Origin: an uncultured Clostridia bacterium
Lineage (GTDB): Bacteria; Bacillota; Clostridia; Oscillospirales; Oscillospiraceae
Assembly: GCA_946184165.1 (NCBI GenBank)
Contig: CAMHEN010000001.1
Span: forward strand, 1-59,056
Direction of reading: 5' to 3'
DNA: 59,056 nt
Position 1 is the first letter of the stretch. Each line of letters starts with the position of its first letter. The notes beneath the pieces were generated by a model. The model saw only the letters and a list, made by a program, of their open reading frames with translations. It was not told where the DNA came from and ran no database searches. Made by a program: the position numbers and the translations under genes. Below, piece by piece: positions 31,305-51,409 of the stretch.

Positions 31305-31460
31305 CGCTGATTGATAGAGGCGCGGTGTTCATCAGTACCGTCCGGCAAGGGCAGGCAGCCGCCGGAGAGAAAGGGATCATCGCCGAAGAATCGTCGCCCT
31401 GCCTGGAGCGCCGGTTCTGGGCCGCACGAGAAAATTGTGCGGACTGTCACAAGTCTTTGT
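31305..31460 (+). promoter_or_regulatory. Lysine riboswitch (L-box) aptamer
   Basis: Compared from memory with the B. subtilis lysC leader, the blocks are collinear: GATAGAGGCGCG vs GAUAGAGGUGCGAA; AGTA; GAGAGAAAGGGATCATCGCCGAAG vs GAAAGGGGAGCGUCGCCGAAG; CTGGAGCGCC; GGACTGTCACAAG vs GGCUGUCAAGAA. Confidence 0.75.
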
Positions 31461-31510
31461 GGAGCGCTATCGAAACACCGGAGAGGATTATTCCTCATAC
31501 CCGATTTTTC

Positions 31511-31539
31511 ATGGACCGCTGACAAAGCGGTTCATTTTT
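31511..31539 (+). terminator. Riboswitch expression-platform terminator
   Basis: ATGGACCGC-TGACAAA-GCGGTTCAT stem followed by TTTT, about 65 nt upstream of the SBP start. Confidence 0.65.
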
Positions 31540-31603
31540 GTATCATCCCTCACCGGCGGGGAAGATTGACCGGGGAACCGAAACGGTTCAGAAAGGATCT
31601 GTC

Positions 31604-32470
31604 ATGAGGAGAATTCTTGCTGTTGCCCTGTGTGCGCTGATGATGCTGGGTCTGTCCGCCGCCGCCTTTGCCGACGTACCGAGCGGCGTGGAGGACGGGG
31701 TCCTCACTATCGCGATGGAATGTGCCTACGCCCCCTACAACTGGACCCAGTCCGATGACTCCAACGGCGCCGTCCCCATTGCAAATGTTGAAGGCTCCTA
31801 TGCAAACGGCTACGACGTCATGATTGCAAAGAAGATCTGCGAGGCCAACGGCTGGCAGCTTGAGGTCCTCCAGTCCGACTGGGACTCCCTGGTACCCGGC
31901 GTACAGACCGGCACCTTTGACGCGGTCATTGCCGGCCAGTCCATGACGGCCGAGCGTGCCGAGCAGGTCGACTTCGCCGGCCCCTACTTCTACGCTACCA
32001 TCGTCTGTCTCACCACCGCAGACAGCCGCTTTGCCAATGCCCAGAGTCTTGCCGATCTCTCCGGCGGCTCCTGCACCGCGCAGCTTGCAACCATCTGGTA
32101 CGATAACTGCCTGCCTCAGATCCAGGGCGCGAACATCCTGCCTGCGGCCGAGACCGCCCCTGCCATGCTGATGGCTCTCATCACCGGCAATGTGGACTTT
32201 GTCTGCACCGACATGCCCACCGCCCAGGGCGCCGTTAATTCCTACAAGGACCAGCAGGAGCTCGTAATCCTCGACTTCTCCGGCACCGACGGCGACTTTG
32301 AATTCACCGAGGAAGAGCGCGCTGAGAACGTGAACATCGGCGTCTCCATGATGAAGGGCAACACCGTCCTGCGCGAGGCTGTCGACAGCGTTCTCTCCCA
32401 GATGACGGTTGAGGATTTCAACGATCTGATGGCCCAGGCGATTGCTATCGCCCCCACCAGCGAGGAATGA
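31604..32470 (+). CDS. Amino-acid ABC transporter substrate-binding protein (family 3), probable lysine uptake
   Basis: Signal peptide MRRILAVALCALMMLGLSAAAFA. PBP type-2 body (FDAVIAGQSMTAERAEQVDFAGPY). Sits downstream of the L-box. Confidence 0.85.
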   Translation: MRRILAVALCALMMLGLSAAAFADVPSGVEDGVLTIAMECAYAPYNWTQSDDSNGAVPIANVEGSYANGYDVMIAKKICEANGWQLEVLQSDWDSLVPGVQTGTFDAVIAGQSMTAERAEQVDFAGPYFYATIVCLTTADSRFANAQSLADLSGGSCTAQLATIWYDNCLPQIQGANILPAAETAPAMLMALITGNVDFVCTDMPTAQGAVNSYKDQQELVILDFSGTDGDFEFTEEERAENVNIGVSMMKGNTVLREAVDSVLSQMTVEDFNDLMAQAIAIAPTSEE

Positions 32471-32574
32471 TCGTAAATCAGTAATCCCGCAAGAAATCAG
32501 GATTAAGCCTCGGGCTGCCACCCGATGCTTAATCCTGTAAAAGAATATAAATAAATATATAAGGAGCAGACCGA

Positions 32575-33525
32575 ATGAACAAGTTTTCGCAGCTCGGTTT
32601 GGACATTGTAAAGCTCTGGGGCAAATACGGAAACTCCTATCTCCTGGGCGTGAAGAATACGTTGATCCTGGCCCTGGTGGGCACGGTGCTCGGCTGTGTG
32701 ATCGGCTTTCTCTGCGGCGTCCTGAACACGATCCCCTATACCAGGAACGACCCGCCCCTCAAGCGCTTCTTCCTACGCCTGATCCGAATTTTGATCCGGA
32801 TCTATGTGGAGGTCTTCCGCGGCACCCCGATGGTGCTGCAGGCGGTGTTCTTCTATTACGGCCTGCCCTATTTCTCCAATAACAGCCTCCGGTTTTCGAG
32901 CGTCTGGGCGGCGGCTATCGTGGTCGTCTCCATCAACACCGGCGCATACATGGCGGAATCCGTGCGCGGCGGCATCATTTCTGTGGACCCTGGCCAGACC
33001 GAGGGCGCCAAGGCAATCGGCATGACCCACGTGCAGACCATGAGCTATGTGATCCTGCCCCAGGCGCTGCGCAACATCATGCCTCAGATCGGGAACAACT
33101 TCATCATTAACGTGAAGGACACCTCTGTCATGTTCATCATAGGCTTTCCGGATTTCTTCTCGGCGCACCGGGCAGCGGTGGGCGCAAGCTATCTCTATTT
33201 TCCATCGGCTACGGTGGAAATGGCGGGCTATCTCACCATGACGCTGGTGGCCTCTTTCCTCCTGCGTTGGATGGAGAAGAAGATGGATGGCAGCTCCAGC
33301 TATGAGCTCGTGCAGGTCGATCCCCTTACCATGACGGCCGGCACTTACAGCTTCCCGGATCACGCCACACCCTTTGACGAGCGCAACCCCGAAGCAGTCA
33401 AGAGCATGCAGCGCGAGGCTCTGCGTCGTCAGGTCGAGAGGGAAGAGGCAGAGCGTCTCGGCAAGCGTGCGGAGACAAGACGCGACAGCGAAACGATGGC
33501 AGGCAGAAAGGAGGCGGACAGATGA
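32575..33525 (+). CDS. Amino-acid ABC transporter permease (His/Glu/Gln/Arg/opine family) with a roughly 90-aa hydrophilic C-terminal tail
   Basis: EAA-like loop ([28 protein letters not shown]). AAGGAG SD. Confidence 0.88.
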
Positions 33526-34259
33526 GCGAAACAATTCTTCAAATTAACCACCTGTCCAAATCCTTCGGCAGCAATCTTGTTCTGCGGGATATCGACTTCA
33601 CAGTGGATAAGGGCGACGTCATCAGCGTCATCGGCGCCTCCGGCTCCGGAAAATCCACGCTTCTCCGATGCATCAATCTGCTGGAGACCCCGACCTCCGG
33701 CGAGATTCTATACCACGGCAAAAACATTCTCGCCCATGGGTCAAACCCCGCACAGTACCGCGCCCATGTGGGTATGGTGTTCCAGTCTTTCAACCTCTTC
33801 AACAACATGACGGTGCTGGAAAACTGTATTACGGGCCAGGTGCACGTCCTTAAAAGAAGCCGCAATGATGCCGAGAAGCATGCTATGGAGTTTCTCGAAA
33901 AGGTCGGTATGGCCCCCTATATCAACGCCAGGCCCCGGCAGATCTCCGGCGGTCAGAAGCAGCGTGTGGCCATTGCCCGCGCCCTCGCCATGGACCCGGA
34001 GGTTCTGCTCTTTGACGAACCTACCTCCGCCCTCGATCCCGAGATGGTGGGGGAAGTCCTCCAGGTCATGCGAAGACTCGCTGAGACAGGCATTACGATG
34101 CTCGTCGTGACACATGAGATGGCCTTTGCCCGGGACGTGAGCCGCCGGGTAGTCTACATGAACCAGGGCGTTATCTGTGAAGAGGGCAGCCCCGATGAGA
34201 TCTTTGGCAGCCCGAAGAAGCCGGAGACGGCCGAATTCCTCACTCGCTTTCGCGGATAA
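33522..34259 (+). CDS. Amino-acid ABC transporter ATP-binding protein (GlnQ-like)
   Basis: [35 protein letters not shown]. Confidence 0.93.
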
Positions 34260-45503: not shown

Positions 45504-45556
45504 ACTTGAAAAAGAGCCGGAAACCGCTGAATTTGTTGCGGTTAGCGGCTCTTTTA
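45504..45556 (-). terminator. Rho-independent terminator of the SBP/c-di-GMP phosphodiesterase operon
   Basis: 15-bp interrupted stem (AAAGAGCCG..AACCGC / GCGGTT..CGGCTCTTT) with TTTTT on the minus strand, about 90 nt after the stop at 45643. Confidence 0.75.
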
Positions 45557-45642
45557 CTGTCCTTAAATGCTGCATGAGGAATTATAGTCGCAGACATGGT
45601 GGCTTGTAGGCGTTTCCGGCAGGTGCCTTCCGCATCATAAGC

Positions 45643-48600
45643 TCAGTGCTCAAGCTCTCTGTCCTGCTGCTCCTTTTTCATCTGTGCGTCGATGATGCTG
45701 ATACCCATGATAATTCTGTTGCCGCCGGGCATGCGCGTGATCTTCATATTGACATACATCGGGCTGCCCGTATCGATCAGACGGTAGGTGGTTGTGAAGA
45801 CGCCCTGCGCGTCCAGCTCACGGATGACACTTTCCTTTGAAAACAGGTTCAGAAAGGGCGTCCGGTCCTCTTCATAAATGCGGGTCATCGTATCGCGATT
45901 CACAGCGCCGAAGAAATCTGTACCGCGCCGTATCACAGACAGTTCCTCTCCGCCGATCCGGGAAGAGTATTCAATAAACTGGTCCGTATCCAGATCTATA
46001 ACATAAATGTTATAGTAGTCCGAAGCCAGAGCCCTCGCGATATCCGCATACGAGGTGTCCGCATCAGGCTCTGAGACGGAAAAAACCACAATGGCAAGCG
46101 CCGCCGCACCGGTTACCGTATCCTTGCTTACGGGGTTAATGGCTGCATGTAGGGCAGAGCCGTTCGGCAGATATGTGTCGAGAAAGGCACGGTTCCAGTC
46201 GGCGCAGCACTGGCGCGCCTTGTCCATGAAGATCGCGCCCGCTCCATCAGGTCTGCCCGAGCAGCCGCAGGGGCTTGCGGAAAGATCACAATCGAAGTAT
46301 TTCTTCATGAACTCACGATATGCCCGGTTCGTGCGCACGTAGCAGACCTGATCCTCGCGCAGCTCCATGATTCCGGCAGGCAGTGTGTCAAAATAGTCCC
46401 GGCTCTCGTTTTCTGTGTCGGAAATCAAGGTGAGGTCATAGAGGTTCACCCGGCCGATCGCGGTGAAATAATCTGTTTCGGCGGGGTCTTCGAAACCGAT
46501 CTGGACGCCTTTCCGGTAGCGCTCCAGGATATCCTCAAAGGGGATAGGCCTGGAATAATAATAACCCTGCTGCTTGCTGCAGCCGATCTCCTGCAGAAAC
46601 TCCACCTCTTCTGCGGTCTCCACGCCTTCGCAGACCGTGTCGATCCCCAGGTCGACAGCCATACGCACCAGGTCCGTCAGGATAATCTTGCTCTCCTTTC
46701 CCTCGTAGAAACGCTTCATAAAGCGCATATCGAATTTGAGAAGATCAAAGTGGATATCCTGCAGCACATCCAGGGAGGAATAGCCACTGCCGAAGTCATC
46801 CATCCACACCTGGAAGCCCAGAGCATGGAAGCGGCGAACCTGTTCCTTCATAAAATCAAAATTGCTGCCGATGATGCTCTCGGTGATTTCGATGGTCAGC
46901 CTGTCGTGGGCGATGCCCGCGGCGTCGATGCGCTTTCGGATTTCCTCAACGATATCACATGCGTCAAAGTCGGCTCTGGACAAATTCAGGGAATGGGGCA
47001 CGACACGCAAGCCGGCCTTTTGCTGCGCCTGCATTTTTTCGAGGATCCGATCAAGCACATAGAGGTCCAGCTTGTATATGAGTCTCGCCTTTTCAAGAAT
47101 CGGGATAAAATCATCCGGCGGCAGCATCCCGCGCACCGGGTCGATCCAGCGGGAAAGCGCCTCCTCGTCAGACACGCGCCCATTGACAGAACGGACTATG
47201 GGCTGGTAATAGACCTTGATCCAGTTTTCCGACAGCGCCTGATCCAGATGGTTTATAATATACCGGACGCCGTCCAGCTGGTGAAGCATGTTGTCGTCAA
47301 AATAGTACCAGTCGGACTCAAAGGAGCTTCTGTGCTTATCACAGGCGTATTTGGCACGGTCACAGGCAATGCTCACGCTGACCTGTTCCATGCTGTCCCG
47401 GTAGATGCCTGCCCGCATCGGCAGGGAATTGCCGCCGTTTGCTGCTTTGCAGTCCCGGAATACAGCGCTCAGCTTTTCCTCAAGGTTTTCCTCACCGCAC
47501 ACAACGGCAAAATGGTCTTCGCTGAAGCGGCACATGCACTGCTCGCCGAAGTGGTCGGCCAGGATCCGCCCAACTTCGCACAGGAGCTTGTCCCCTTCCG
47601 CAAAGCCGTACTGGCGGTTATAATACTTCATGCCTACGAGGTCAAAAAACAGCATGGCGGAGGAGCCCCCGCTTTCGGCAAGTCTCTTCCGTTCCGCCTT
47701 TGCCAGCTTGAAGAAATACCGCATGTTCGGCAGACCCGTCAGCATGTCCGTGTTGACCCGTCGGCTAAGATCCGTGATATAGTCCTTGATCTGGTCGCGC
47801 ATGCGGATAAATGCCTGGGTGAGCTGTCCAATCTCGTCCTTGCTCCGGTAATTCAGCGCCACGTCGTAATCCGCGTTGGCCAGCCGCTGTGAGGCGGCCG
47901 TAAGGCTTAAAAGCGGGAATGTGATGAAACGCATGACCGATCTGATGATCACGGCAAGGATGACCATGACCGCCAGTGTAATGAAAACGATGTTGCGCGC
48001 AAGGTGCATCCAGGAGGCATTGATCTCACGCAGAGGGGCGGTGATGATCAGCTTCAAGCCGTTTCGCAAGGTGGTAAAGGCCATCTGCCGCCGTGCCCCG
48101 TCTATGTCGTAGCGGATCAGGGTATCGCCGCTGTCCTTGCTGTTGAACAGTTCCTCGGGAATCGACAGCTTTGCCGACTCCAGTACTTTCTCCTGTGTCA
48201 GATACGGATGATACAGGAGCGTCCCTTCCTCGTCGCAGAGGATTGCAAAGCCCGTGTCATAGACCCGGACGGAGCTGACGTAGGCGGTGATGGTATCCAA
48301 CGGGATATCCATGCCGAGCACGCCGATCAGCGTACCGGTAGAGTAGATCGGCACGAGATAAGAGCACAGCTTCATATCGCCGAGGGGTGGGTATTCATAC
48401 AGCCCCACCCAGGAAGGGCGGCCGCGTTTGACCGTTGTAAAGTACCAGCTGTTGTATGCAGCATTCTCCGGATCAAACATACCGGCGTCCAGAGGCTCCT
48501 GCTCCACGAAGCCCGCCTTCCCGACTCTGGAATAGTAAAAGCCATGCTGTGTCTTGCTGATCTCAGGATTGATGCAGTAGTAATAGGTAATGATGCCGTT

Positions 48601-48987
48601 GGTATGGCTCGCGGCGCTCTCGAAGGTGCGCAGGACCCGTTCACAGTGTTCTGCGATATAGGCGTCCAGCCTGACTGTCTGCTCTCTTGTCCGCTCGTTC
48701 TGTTTGGCATAGGTGCCCGCGGCGCCGCACTCCACCAGCATGACGCTGTCCAGCGAGTCGACCGCCATGTTGGCAGCAAGATTCACGGACTGCTCGATGC
48801 TTTCGAAATACTCGTCCAGCGTGTTTTTCGTATTCTCCCCGATCAGGCGCATCATTTCCACCGAGCTCCGGTCCGTCTCGGTCTGGATCGGCGGGTAACT
48901 CGCGGCAAAGACGGCGAGCATGGCGACAAGAACCGCGGCGACCGCGATCGCCGTGATCTTAAAGCGAATCGAATTCATCTTCATCAT
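45643..48987 (-). CDS. Membrane sensor: dCache-HAMP-GGDEF(degenerate)-EAL-PAS-like c-di-GMP phosphodiesterase
   Basis: TM1, a roughly 280-aa extracytoplasmic Cache-like region, TM2, and a HAMP domain (KDEIGQLTQAFIRMRDQI). The GGDEF domain A-site reads RFSEDHF. The EAL domain is intact (EEALSRW, NLS, EITES, DDFGSGYSSL, EGVET, QGYYYSRP). About 300 aa of extra C-terminal domains follow. The start is ATG 48987 (2 nt after the SBP stop) or TTG 48993. Confidence 0.88.
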   Translation of the reverse strand: MMKMNSIRFKITAIAVAAVLVAMLAVFAASYPPIQTETDRSSVEMMRLIGENTKNTLDEYFESIEQSVNLAANMAVDSLDSVMLVECGAAGTYAKQNERTREQTVRLDAYIAEHCERVLRTFESAASHTNGIITYYYCINPEISKTQHGFYYSRVGKAGFVEQEPLDAGMFDPENAAYNSWYFTTVKRGRPSWVGLYEYPPLGDMKLCSYLVPIYSTGTLIGVLGMDIPLDTITAYVSSVRVYDTGFAILCDEEGTLLYHPYLTQEKVLESAKLSIPEELFNSKDSGDTLIRYDIDGARRQMAFTTLRNGLKLIITAPLREINASWMHLARNIVFITLAVMVILAVIIRSVMRFITFPLLSLTAASQRLANADYDVALNYRSKDEIGQLTQAFIRMRDQIKDYITDLSRRVNTDMLTGLPNMRYFFKLAKAERKRLAESGGSSAMLFFDLVGMKYYNRQYGFAEGDKLLCEVGRILADHFGEQCMCRFSEDHFAVVCGEENLEEKLSAVFRDCKAANGGNSLPMRAGIYRDSMEQVSVSIACDRAKYACDKHRSSFESDWYYFDDNMLHQLDGVRYIINHLDQALSENWIKVYYQPIVRSVNGRVSDEEALSRWIDPVRGMLPPDDFIPILEKARLIYKLDLYVLDRILEKMQAQQKAGLRVVPHSLNLSRADFDACDIVEEIRKRIDAAGIAHDRLTIEITESIIGSNFDFMKEQVRRFHALGFQVWMDDFGSGYSSLDVLQDIHFDLLKFDMRFMKRFYEGKESKIILTDLVRMAVDLGIDTVCEGVETAEEVEFLQEIGCSKQQGYYYSRPIPFEDILERYRKGVQIGFEDPAETDYFTAIGRVNLYDLTLISDTENESRDYFDTLPAGIMELREDQVCYVRTNRAYREFMKKYFDCDLSASPCGCSGRPDGAGAIFMDKARQCCADWNRAFLDTYLPNGSALHAAINPVSKDTVTGAAALAIVVFSVSEPDADTSYADIARALASDYYNIYVIDLDTDQFIEYSSRIGGEELSVIRRGTDFFGAVNRDTMTRIYEEDRTPFLNLFSKESVIRELDAQGVFTTTYRLIDTGSPMYVNMKITRMPGGNRIIMGISIIDAQMKKEQQDRELEH

Positions 48988-48989
48988 GC

Positions 48990-50636
48990 TCAATCCTCAC
49001 GAATGGACATTTCCCGGTACATGTTCTTGACAGAACCGTTCCAGGAGTACTGCATACCTTCCAGCCGTTCCGAGATCACATAGGTGTACATCCGGGAGAA
49101 CAGGGGGATCCACGCGGCGTCCCCCTGCACGATGATCTCTTCCAATGCCCGATACTCCGCAATGCGGGCGTCGGGGTCGGCGATGGTGCGTGCCTCACGT
49201 ACGCGCTCCATGATCTCCTCCCGCGGATAGCAGAGGCTGCGAAAACGCGTGTTTTCCGCATCTCCGAAGAAGGTGTACAGGAAATTGTCCGGGTCGTTGT
49301 AATCTGCGGTCCAGGTCGCGGAGTAGCATTGAAGCTGCCCGCTCTTCCGCAGACTCATAAACTCGCTGTCGGTCAGCGTTTCGATGACCGTATGCACCCC
49401 GACATGTTCCCACTGAGACGCTGCCATCCTGAGCAGGGCCATCTCACCCAGGGAAGAGGCGGCGCTCACGCTCAGCGTCAGGGTGAAGCCGTCCGGATAC
49501 CCCGCCTCGCTGAGCAGTTCACGCGCTGCTTTCGGATCATTGGGAATCTCCGGGAGATCCGGATTAAAGCCGGAAAGCCCGTGGGGCATGATCCCGTTTT
49601 CCAGCGAGCCCCGTCCGCTGTATGCAGCGTCAAGCAGAAGCGTTCTGTTCAGCGCAAGCTGCAGCGCGTGCCTGACACGCACGTCGTCCAGCGGGGGGAT
49701 GGATTCGTTGAGGGCAATATAGGTGGTGCTGATGCGCTGAACCTGATAGAGCCGGTCCTGATAGATATCGCCGTGCAGGAAAAACTCCGCCGTTTTCCCA
49801 ACATCGTCCAGGTTCAGGATATCCAGAGCTCCGTCTTCAAACAGCAGCCTGACTTCCTCCGCGTCTGTCATAAAGCGCAGATCCAGTCCGGCGCAGCGGG
49901 GCGGCCCCTGCCAGCAGTTTTGATTTGCCGTCAGCAGCATGCCCTTGCCGGGTTCCCAGCTTTCCAGAATGAAGGACCCTGTTCCGATTGTCCATTCGGG
50001 CTCGAGGCCGAAGCGGTCCCCGGCCTGGGTCGTTGTCTCCTGATCCAGGATCGAGGCGCCCGGCATGGACAGGCAGGCAAGGAAGGCCTCAAAGGGATTA
50101 TCGAGCGTGACAATAAAATCGAGGTCGCTGAGTATCTCAAAGCCGGTGAGTCTGTTTGTCAGTCCTTCTTCCAGCGAGTCGGCGCCCACAATGCAGTCGA
50201 CGATGTCCCCGTTGCAGGAGTCGGGATGGGTCAGCAGTCTGGTGAAGGTATACTGTACGTCGGACGCGGTGAGCGGCGAACCGTTGGAAAAGGTCACACC
50301 TTCACGCAGGTGGAAGGTATAGGAGCGCCGGTCGTCGGAGATCTTCCAGCTTTCGGCCAGCTCCGGGAAGATCCTGGCGTTCCCGTCGGCGCCGCTCTCC
50401 ATCCCCACCAGGCGGTTGAACACATTCTGAGCGATGGTGTAGTGGATCGTGGTGCATTGAAAATCCACCGTGTCCGGCTCATCCTCGATGGCGACAAGAT
50501 AAGCGGAGGTGTTCGGTTCCGCCGCCTGTTCCGGTGCCGGGGACGGCCGAGTGACGGCAGAGCATGCGGTCAGGGACAGCAGTGCAGTTGCCAGCAGGAT
50601 GCAGATTGATTTTTTCAGTCTGTTGATCGTATTCAT
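48990..50636 (-). CDS. Lipoprotein, ABC-type solute-binding protein family 5 (peptide/nickel/opine type), orphan (no permease or ATPase genes adjacent)
   Basis: ATG 50636 behind AAGGAG gives MNTINRLKKSICILLATALLSLTAC (lipobox). The SBP_bac_5-like body includes YTFHLREGVTFSNGSPLTASDV. Confidence 0.85.
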   Translation of the reverse strand: MNTINRLKKSICILLATALLSLTACSAVTRPSPAPEQAAEPNTSAYLVAIEDEPDTVDFQCTTIHYTIAQNVFNRLVGMESGADGNARIFPELAESWKISDDRRSYTFHLREGVTFSNGSPLTASDVQYTFTRLLTHPDSCNGDIVDCIVGADSLEEGLTNRLTGFEILSDLDFIVTLDNPFEAFLACLSMPGASILDQETTTQAGDRFGLEPEWTIGTGSFILESWEPGKGMLLTANQNCWQGPPRCAGLDLRFMTDAEEVRLLFEDGALDILNLDDVGKTAEFFLHGDIYQDRLYQVQRISTTYIALNESIPPLDDVRVRHALQLALNRTLLLDAAYSGRGSLENGIMPHGLSGFNPDLPEIPNDPKAARELLSEAGYPDGFTLTLSVSAASSLGEMALLRMAASQWEHVGVHTVIETLTDSEFMSLRKSGQLQCYSATWTADYNDPDNFLYTFFGDAENTRFRSLCYPREEIMERVREARTIADPDARIAEYRALEEIIVQGDAAWIPLFSRMYTYVISERLEGMQYSWNGSVKNMYREMSIRED

Positions 50637-51409
50637 GGCTGCATGCTCCTTATAAGCCTTGGTGACTGCGGCATACGGTAGCGTACCGCCCTGTATCGTC
50701 CGGCAGAGCGGAAAAGTGCGGCAAGACAGGCGGAACTTGACGAATCTGCACAACATGTTTGAAAAATATAATCGAACTATTAGCTTATATTATATAGTAA
50801 TACACAAACAACTTCAAGATATAAAAAACTTTTAGCTATGTGTCGGCTTCGATGCGTAATATTCTTTTTAATTAAAGAAGACTTTTCATTGAAAAGGTGC
50901 CGCTTAACGCGTCACCCCTCTGCGCCAAAAAGAAAAGAGGACGTCTCATAAAGTCTCCGACACGCTGTTGAAATCAGACGTTGTCTGCTTTTATACCGGA
51001 CAGGCATAAAACGCATTAAAACGTTTGTAGTTGCGTAGAGTGTCTGCATGAGACGTCTTTTGTACATTTTGGCACAAAACTGGCAGCGCGGGAGCACGAT
51101 GACTCACCGAAAAGGAGGCATTCTATCGGTGAACGGTATTCACGGGAGAACAGTGTGACCGCGCTATTTTGACCGTCCCGGCCCCAGACCGCCGAGAATA
51201 TAGTCATGCAGAGGGTTTGAATGTCGATGTATATTCAGAGGAAGCGAATGCCGACCAGATTTCTCCCAGCAGAGAAGCAGGACCCCCTTCAGGGAAAAAC
51301 GGAAGCGCAGGTTTCCTGCGGTATGCCTTCACGTTCCAATTCTAATGCGGCCCTTTCGATCGACGCTGCGATATTTTTAAGGCACAGGCATCCTGCAAAT
51401 TTCATGCGT

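Follow-up and report, generated by a model that had tools for sequence, protein, structure and literature searches.

Introduction

In this article, I will discuss two adjacent genes on the minus strand of a 59,056-nucleotide stretch of DNA from an uncultured Clostridia bacterium of the Oscillospiraceae (GenBank assembly GCA_946184165.1, contig CAMHEN010000001.1, positions 1 to 59,056; this whole stretch is called the window below). The first gene (50636-48990) encodes a lipoprotein belonging to the family-5 solute-binding proteins (SBPs; Pfam SBP_bac_5), the second (48987-45643) a membrane-bound phosphodiesterase predicted to act on cyclic di-GMP (c-di-GMP), and I consider it probable, on balance, that together they constitute a two-gene cassette feeding an extracellular signal into c-di-GMP, in which the SBP would dock on the double-Cache (dCache) enzyme in a ligand-dependent manner. 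The features of the pair are as follows, in the direction of transcription.

50789..50817, minus strand: sigma-70-like promoter candidate TTGAAG-17-TATAAT, ~150 nt 5' of the SBP start codon (consensus scan, 10/12 matches, a pattern match only)
48990..50636, minus strand: SBP gene, family-5 solute-binding lipoprotein of 548 amino acids (aa), DppA/HbpA-like, without adjoining transporter genes (Pfam SBP_bac_5)
50562..50636, minus strand: signal peptide and lipobox L-T-A-C with Cys25 (direct reading of the translation)
48985..48993, minus strand: gene junction TGA, GC, ATG, with a GAGGA ribosome-binding site inside the 3' end of the SBP gene (sequence)
45643..48987, minus strand: membrane c-di-GMP phosphodiesterase gene, 1114 aa, with a transmembrane segment (TM), dCache, a second TM, HAMP, degenerate GGDEF, EAL and two PAS-like domains (Pfam, NCBIfam phosphodiesterase families, hydropathy)
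48013..48885, minus strand: extracytoplasmic dCache ectodomain, residues ~35-325, homologous to dCache_1UR (AlphaFold2, Foldseek, profile search)
47785..47934, minus strand: HAMP domain, residues 352-401 (Pfam HAMP 5e-10)
47278..47754, minus strand: degenerate GGDEF domain, residues ~412-570 (Pfam GGDEF, partial profile match)
47509-47523, minus strand: GGDEF A-site SEDHF (motif RFSEDHF at residues 487-493)
46546..47253, minus strand: EAL domain with all catalytic motifs, residues 579-814 (Pfam EAL 1.3e-64, full length)
45646..46512, minus strand: two tandem PAS-like domains, residues 826-1114 (AlphaFold2 model and Foldseek; no Pfam match)
45504..45557, minus strand: intrinsic terminator hairpin and U-run, apparently bidirectional (RNA fold; stem of ~16 bp with an internal loop, then UUUUUC)

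The SBP gene begins at ATG 50636 behind an AAGGAG, a start that is supported because the homologs align from residue 1, and stops at 48992-48990. At the junction, GAGGATTGAGCATG, the TGA stop is followed by GC and then by ATG 48987, and an alternative TTG start at 48993 would overlap the SBP stop by 2 nt; the terminator, ~90 nt past the phosphodiesterase stop, ends the two-gene unit. No Opp-type permease occurs anywhere in the window, and the ATP-binding cassette (ABC) ATPase-like matches that it does contain are weak (22-32% identity) and all lie >11 kb from the pair. The original prediction, read from the letters of the DNA, had described a lipobox signal peptide on the SBP (here LSLTAC with Cys25), the lack of adjoining ABC permease or ATPase genes, a 2-nt gap to the ATG that turns into an overlap if the TTG is used, and closure of the pair by one terminator, and each of these readings stands.

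A pairing conserved across genomes

The SBP was searched against 185,579 species genomes (one per species), yielding 566 relatives, and the best 80 of these were surveyed together with their flanks, the loci being annotated by BLAST against the domains of the window and against Pfam-verified reference permeases, ATPases and kinase. In 22 of the 80 loci, from genomes of Enterocloster, Clostridium and Lachnospiraceae of the human, mouse or chicken gut, the SBP shows <=50% identity and the gene order is SBP, OppB, OppC, OppD, OppF in each. The other 58 loci (SBP identity 48-87%) come almost all from ruminant gut genomes, and a permease adjoins the SBP gene in none of the 58. Three of them are uninformative since the contig ends within ~200 nt of the SBP stop; in 52 of the 55 informative loci the next gene downstream, in the same orientation, is a homologous dCache gene, at a median gap of 16 nt (range -4 to 232, seven overlapping by 1-4 nt), and one more (Butyrivibrio sp. 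AC2005, L051) has a dCache-HAMP hybrid kinase directly upstream, its open reading frame (ORF) running into the SBP gene. These sensor-linked loci span Oscillospiraceae, Lachnospiraceae, Erysipelotrichaceae, Anaerovoracaceae, Atopobiaceae and Selenomonadales.

The division is also one of descent. In a maximum-likelihood tree of the SBPs, the transporter-linked proteins form one clade with a Shimodaira-Hasegawa-like approximate likelihood ratio test (SH-aLRT) value of 99 and 54 sensor-linked proteins form another (SH-aLRT 96), and the transporter label requires a single change on this tree, a fit equaled by 0 of 500 shuffles. A genome of the same genus (G024) holds the pair among unrelated neighbors, unlike those at the locus of the window, and the paralogous pairs present in several genomes (L025, L028, L031 vs L044, L045, L067) group identically in the SBP and ectodomain trees, which means that the two genes are duplicated or transferred together. 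The genome from which the window comes (67% complete) has two more SBP_bac_5 genes, both adjoining OppC-type permeases, and the SBP of the window is its only orphan.

When the survey was reversed and the ectodomain profile was used as the query, homologs at E<=1e-30 were found in 19 of 401 Clostridia genomes (400 evenly drawn plus the window's own); those in the 18 other genomes are 25-33% identical, most of them carry a GGDEF domain and many are ~525 aa long, and a similar SBP gene was found within 1.5 kb of none of them. The association with an SBP is thus a specific, acquired trait of one subfamily rather than something general to this type of Cache domain. The co-occurrence survey had been proposed in the original prediction, and its outcome (52 of 55 informative loci with the dCache gene directly downstream, plus one kinase), taken together with the clade split and the orphan status of the SBP in its own genome, gives good comparative-genomic support to the functional coupling that had been put forward there by likeness to NspS-MbaA. 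As a side observation, two contigs of one metagenome-assembled genome (UBA3386; L038:6953-10546 and L073:1-5195) show tandem paralogous SBP genes at a contig end and, on the other contig, an opening inside an SBP gene followed by a phosphodiesterase gene, and these may be a cassette with several SBPs and one sensor that was split by assembly.

The membrane enzyme and its interchangeable outputs

In the 1114-aa enzyme, Pfam recognizes dCache_1 (2.4e-16), HAMP (5e-10), GGDEF (3.2e-15) and EAL (1.3e-64), the ectodomain also matches MCP-like_PDC_1, and two hydrophobic segments, at residues 6-34 and 326-360 by hydropathy, flank an ectodomain of ~290 aa. The GGDEF match is limited to the first 95 of 161 profile positions (2-95), and the GG[DE]EF active-site motif is absent, the site reading SEDHF; as this lacks the second Gly and the Glu, hydrolysis alone is expected of the enzyme. 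The EAL motifs, on the other side, are EALSR, the N in SLNLS, EITES, DDFGSG, KFD, EGVET and QGYYY, all conserved across the family. Nearly all EAL-linked members (window 47509-47523; loci L017-L077) share an [SG]xDHF A-site with His in place of the catalytic Glu, and because Asp-His-Phe is kept, the degenerate GGDEF has not decayed at random; the retained residues suggest that the domain has a conserved function other than catalysis, perhaps the binding of a nucleotide.

The C-terminal ~290 aa, modeled with AlphaFold2 from the family alignment, form two alpha/beta units of the PAS type with a predicted local distance difference test score (pLDDT) of 74.5, and the top Foldseek matches are tandem PAS proteins (LOV-PAS, FixL PAS-PAS, PpsR) with E down to 6e-10 and template modeling (TM) scores that are low because the two PAS units are oriented differently; judged from the model, the domain type (PAS-like) is clear, though no specific relative emerged. 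The Cache-like ectodomain, the HAMP domain, the degenerate A-site RFSEDHF and the full set of EAL motifs had all been read correctly in the original prediction, so the dCache-HAMP-GGDEF-EAL part of its domain list is upheld and needs only the addition of the 290-aa C-terminal tandem PAS-like region, which it had missed. The genome also encodes a paralog (C103) that is 52% identical from HAMP to the C-terminus and has a different N-terminus with no Cache match; its contig ends ~180 nt upstream of the gene, and it has no bearing on the cassette.

Across the family, the output behind the ectodomain varies. The combination of degenerate GGDEF and EAL is found at ~45 loci, and the EAL motifs are intact in all partners that carry this domain. 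The partners at L066, L069, L070 and L075 are shorter (~575 aa), have as their last domain a GGDEF with the canonical motif RxGGDEF, and are predicted cyclases for that reason. In Butyrivibrio sp. AC2005 (L051:4219-8641), an SBP of 61% identity is accompanied by a dCache-HAMP-HisKA-HATPase-REC-Hpt hybrid kinase; a conventional SBP-OppBCD operon divergently adjoins this SBP-kinase pair. What the cyclase and kinase partners show is a constant core of SBP, dCache and HAMP on which the output can be exchanged. Members also differ in how many C-terminal PAS-like units they have (0 to 4), giving proteins of ~825, 975, 1110, 1257 and 1410 aa (loci L017-L077), and two members (L026, L043) end in an extra GGDEF that is canonical and intact, so that these enzymes would be bifunctional by their motifs. 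Beside these members, the same-genus genome G024 has at L014:1673-4693 an SBP_bac_3 fused to a degenerate GGDEF and EAL, directly upstream of a dCache-HAMP-GGDEF cyclase gene, and this protein is a fused counterpart of the arrangement with separate SBP and enzyme.

The ectodomain and its pocket

An AlphaFold2 model of enzyme residues 1-335 has a double-Cache fold (pLDDT 86.5), its top Foldseek match in the PDB is 9hvj (E=2e-20, TM scores 0.70/0.82), and the family profile matches 9hvj across the whole domain with E=4e-57. This structure is the ligand-binding domain of the Roseburia intestinalis chemoreceptor A4; uracil occupies its distal module and acetate its proximal one (PMC11844446). The roles of the pocket residues, taken from that paper, were transferred through an alignment of the 9hvj sequence to the cassette family (43 members), with the following result.

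Uracil-specific residues of A4, all four replaced in the window: R116 by C138, T145 by L166, N178 by Y199, N180 by P201; C/L/A/F in most EAL-linked members
Pocket of A4 shared with amine sensors, F129, W160, Y176, D205: window Y151, W181, Y197, D227; W invariant, Y in 41/43, D in 41/43
Proximal acetate site of A4, Y225, H238, Y273, K280: window F247, H260, Y293, R300; H invariant, Y in 41/43, R or K in 37/43

With 4 of 4 uracil-specific residues replaced, uracil is ruled out as the ligand of the ectodomain in the window; the full motif R/T/N/N is kept in the cyclase-linked L069, L070 and L075. A dCache domain of the amino-acid or autoinducer-2 (AI-2) type is unlikely as well, for such domains reportedly carry an RxWY motif, known from the PctA literature, and the window reads NSWY, without the Arg. 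Judged by homology, the ectodomain descends from a sensor that binds its ligands directly, and it probably still binds a small molecule; since the generic pocket and the carboxylate site are kept, it may do so by itself, and the SBP is perhaps a second input to the enzyme and not the sole one.

The solute-binding lipoprotein

The SBP (548 aa) begins MNTINRLKKSICILLATALLSLTAC, with the lipobox LSLTAC and Cys25, and matches Pfam SBP_bac_5 (PF00496) over profile positions 3-366 of 368 with 272 bits against a cut-off of 32.4 (E=1e-80). The lipobox column holds Cys in 45 of 57 sensor-linked homologs, the remainder being mostly gaps from trimmed N-termini. Its top NCBIfam and PDB matches are DppA, HbpA, NikA and OppA, all far under the equivalog cut-offs (the NCBIfam DppA model gives 163 bits against a cut-off of 1005), and by sequence the closest solved structures are DppA (5f1q/1dpp) and HbpA, with the AibA/HbpA-type 6ofq among the closer PDB matches (E=1e-31). 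On these similarities I would call the SBP DppA-like and not an ortholog of any characterized protein; binding of AI-2 in the manner of AibA is neither supported nor excluded.

In DppA, Asp408 anchors the alpha-amino group of the peptide and Arg355 binds its C-terminal carboxylate. Asp445 of the SBP, the counterpart of Asp408 in the alignment, does not vary in either clade, sensor-linked or transporter-linked, and the Arg355 position, which falls within a gapped region of the alignment, is Ala. At the sensor-less locus L037:5782-14482, the SBP gene lies between genes for an S51 peptidase (dipeptidase E-like) and an S9 peptidase on one side and a second, distant SBP_bac_5 gene on the other. Asp445, the Arg355 position and these peptidase neighbors weakly suggest a peptide-like ligand with a free amino terminus.

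Between the two clades, 80 SBP positions are invariant and 29 are discriminating, several of the latter being cysteines. C61, C141, C241, C248, C437 and C469 are conserved in >80% of the sensor-linked SBPs, and at the same positions of the transporter-linked clade Cys is rare, the residues being mostly K, V, Y, L, S and N. In a strict anaerobe, an extracytoplasmic protein would not usually have six such cysteines, and disulfides, a metal site or redox sensing are possible roles.

Neighborhood and expression

The genes flanking the pair are mobA upstream and, downstream, a THEP1-like NTPase, moeA and a molybdopterin enzyme operon. An Rfam scan of the window found no c-di-GMP riboswitch, its sole match being a lysine riboswitch (RF00168, 95.8 bits, 31307-31477, plus strand) upstream of the plus-strand ORFs at 31538-34259, which include an ABC ATPase-like gene at ~33400-34240. 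The available transcript data are just short metatranscriptome contigs from relatives (90-95% identity) plus one exact piece: a 229-nt bovine contig (X21; 93% identical and hence from a relative) spans the gene junction at 48827-49055, and a 214-nt contig of a sheep-gut RNA library (X20) matches the enzyme gene exactly at 48697-48910. These contigs are weak evidence of expression and co-transcription, too thin to serve as proof, as DNA carry-over is possible.

Comparison with known systems

A 2021 review lists only NspS-MbaA and ScrB-ScrC as systems joining an SBP to a GGDEF-EAL enzyme (PMC8050422). NspS-MbaA of Vibrio cholerae, present also in Sinorhizobium meliloti, resembles the pair of the window in that the SBP gene lies immediately upstream of the gene for a membrane protein that combines a dCache-like periplasmic domain with an EAL domain and a non-canonical GGDEF (PMC8079147, PMC8050422), and in having an SBP dedicated to signaling and an output in the form of the c-di-GMP level. 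The differences are considerable: NspS is a PotD-type polyamine binder (SBP_bac_8), whereas the partner in the window is a DppA-like SBP_bac_5 protein; the SGDEF of MbaA keeps the catalytic Asp-Glu and the enzyme is reported to be bifunctional (PMC8079147), whereas the SEDHF of the window is without the second Gly and the Glu; the enzyme of the window, unlike MbaA, carries two extra C-terminal PAS-like domains; and its host, unlike those of NspS-MbaA, is a monoderm member of the Clostridia, which is why the SBP is a lipoprotein. I therefore regard the pair as an analog of NspS-MbaA and not a member of that system, and no sequence orthology is claimed. ScrB-ScrC of Vibrio parahaemolyticus is similar in that its SBP modulates the activity of a dCache-like GGDEF-EAL enzyme encoded with it (PMC8050422), and departs from the window in that ScrB belongs to SBP_bac_3, a signal synthase (ScrA) is part of the system, ScrC is a bifunctional enzyme and the system is proteobacterial.

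For the SBP family itself, precedents of a different kind exist. CBP-ChiS (Vibrio), AibA-TlpB (Helicobacter pylori) and DppA-Tap (E. coli) are, like the proposal for the window, SBP_bac_5 proteins that signal by docking on a membrane sensor, and the ectodomain of ChiS is dCache-like (PMC8050422). Their outputs are a kinase/DNA-binding sensor or chemoreceptors, in place of the c-di-GMP enzyme of the window, and CBP, AibA and DppA are still encoded with and serve ABC importers, unlike the SBP of the window, which has no adjoining transporter genes. The dCache_1UR sensors of gut Clostridia, exemplified by A4 of Roseburia intestinalis (9hvj; PMC11844446), are homologous to the ectodomain of the window over its full length, with the shared pocket residues and most residues of the proximal carboxylate site conserved; in A4, a chemoreceptor, the ligands bind directly to the domain, whereas the ectodomain of the cassette is always accompanied by an SBP gene. 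Full-text literature searches returned no paper linking SBP_bac_5 to GGDEF/EAL enzymes, the general review aside (PMC8050422). By analogy, then, the cassette would be of the same kind as NspS-MbaA and CBP-ChiS, and it follows the logic of NspS-MbaA and ScrB-ScrC without belonging to either system, as it has a different SBP family, a GGDEF site without the catalytic Glu that the SGDEF of MbaA keeps, and a monoderm host.

Discussion

The mechanism that I propose starts from an SBP that would derive from a component of a dipeptide/oligopeptide importer and whose gene now stands apart from transporter genes. Anchored on the outside of the membrane, it would bind a ligand that is probably peptide-like with a free amino group, and the ligand state would decide whether it docks onto, or is released from, the dCache ectodomain of its partner. 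The second transmembrane segment and HAMP would carry the signal to the cytoplasmic part, where the degenerate GGDEF is expected to make no c-di-GMP and is probably a regulatory or dimerization module, the intact EAL would hydrolyze c-di-GMP, and the two C-terminal PAS-like domains may add a cytoplasmic input or a dimerization surface. The dCache domain itself probably binds a small molecule through its aromatic/Asp distal pocket and its His/Tyr/Arg carboxylate site, such that the enzyme would integrate the SBP signal with a directly bound metabolite. What the data establish is how the genes are laid out, which domains they encode and in what state the motifs are, that the synteny is conserved, that the SBPs split from their transporter-linked homologs as a clade and that the outputs swap; the physical contact between SBP and enzyme, the class and identity of the ligand and the direction of regulation I infer.

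Several observations weigh against a docking SBP and should be considered together. The remaining two of the 55 informative loci (L037, L056) have no adjoining sensor; orphan OppA-type proteins that share one permease are common in Gram-positive bacteria; and the genome of the window is just 67% complete. The ectodomain is homologous to a direct-binding sensor, keeps W181, Y197, D227, H260, Y293 and R300, and may need no SBP. Co-evolution specific to the ectodomain, as a trace of an interface, was not found either, for the distance-matrix (mirror-tree) correlation between SBP and ectodomain (r=0.72, with 0 of 999 permutations as high) is matched by that between SBP and EAL (r=0.71), and equal values for the two domains reflect shared history and linkage only and carry no interface signal.

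Along these lines, it could be argued that the dCache domain is the sole real sensor, of a short-chain fatty acid or an amine- or pyrimidine-like ligand, and that the SBP is merely co-expressed and serves a distant Opp/Dpp permease or nutrient capture. The profile match to the uracil/acetate sensor 9hvj (E=4e-57), the conservation across the family of the site counterparts Y151, W181, Y197 and D227 and F247, H260, Y293 and R300, the complete uracil motif R/T/N/N in the cyclase-linked L069, L070 and L075, and the two Opp-type permease sets of the genome, which could in principle take a third SBP, all speak for this, but I find it unlikely: co-expression leaves unexplained why SBP and ectodomain stay linked through changes of output, gene order, neighborhood and phylum, it gives no account of why the sensor-linked clade never adjoins permeases, the distant ectodomain homologs in the 400 sampled Clostridia genomes have no such SBP gene within 1.5 kb, and the EAL-linked clade no longer has the uracil-specific residues. 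Somewhat less probable again is a dual role, in which the SBP feeds an importer encoded elsewhere and at the same time reports its occupancy to the phosphodiesterase, coordinating uptake with c-di-GMP. The Opp-type permeases of the genome, the 80 invariant positions and the peptide-anchoring Asp and fold that are fully conserved between the clades agree with it, as do the family-5 precedents CBP-ChiS, DppA-Tap and AibA-TlpB (PMC8050422). Yet both Opp-type loci of the genome already have an SBP of their own, and a separate sensor-linked clade with 29 discriminating positions, several cysteines among them, suggests specialization. Nor is a dual-role system of this type known in which the transporter linkage is gone from all members, and this, too, counts against it. 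As for a chance adjacency of an orphan SBP gene and a c-di-GMP gene, devoid of functional meaning, all that can be said for it is that orphan OppA-like genes are generally common in Firmicutes, and it is highly improbable in view of the pairing seen in several families, at 53 of 55 informative loci and at translational-coupling distances, the co-segregation of paralogous pairs in both trees and the differing genomic neighborhoods in which the pair is found; nor would a recently spread mobile element account for it, with SBP identities running from 48% to 87%.

Returning to the ligand-dependent docking of the SBP on the dCache enzyme, a bolder version, which I offer tentatively and regard as possible though doubtful, is that the SBP, the dCache_1UR-derived ectodomain and HAMP would form a portable two-signal input, combining a peptide-like cue with a fermentation-acid or small-molecule cue, that has been put on phosphodiesterase, cyclase and kinase outputs and exchanged horizontally among the Firmicutes, Negativicutes and Actinobacteria of the ruminant gut, the uracil pocket having been remodeled after capture of the SBP in the lineage of the window.

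The SBP-controlled c-di-GMP enzymes characterized so far are two proteobacterial systems, NspS-MbaA and ScrB-ScrC (PMC8050422), neither with a family-5 SBP and neither from Firmicutes. The cassette described here is a defined family of ~50 members in rumen and gut bacteria that comes with a natural control in its transporter-linked sister clade, with natural output swaps (phosphodiesterase, cyclase, kinase) and with cultured carriers in Clostridiales bacterium NK3B98 and Butyrivibrio sp. AC2005. Furthermore, its link to dCache_1UR, the ligands of which were recently determined experimentally, makes it testable whether one Cache domain reads a bound metabolite and an SBP at once. Attachment to plant fiber is probably under the control of c-di-GMP in rumen bacteria, and if so, the ligand of the SBP could be a colonization cue.

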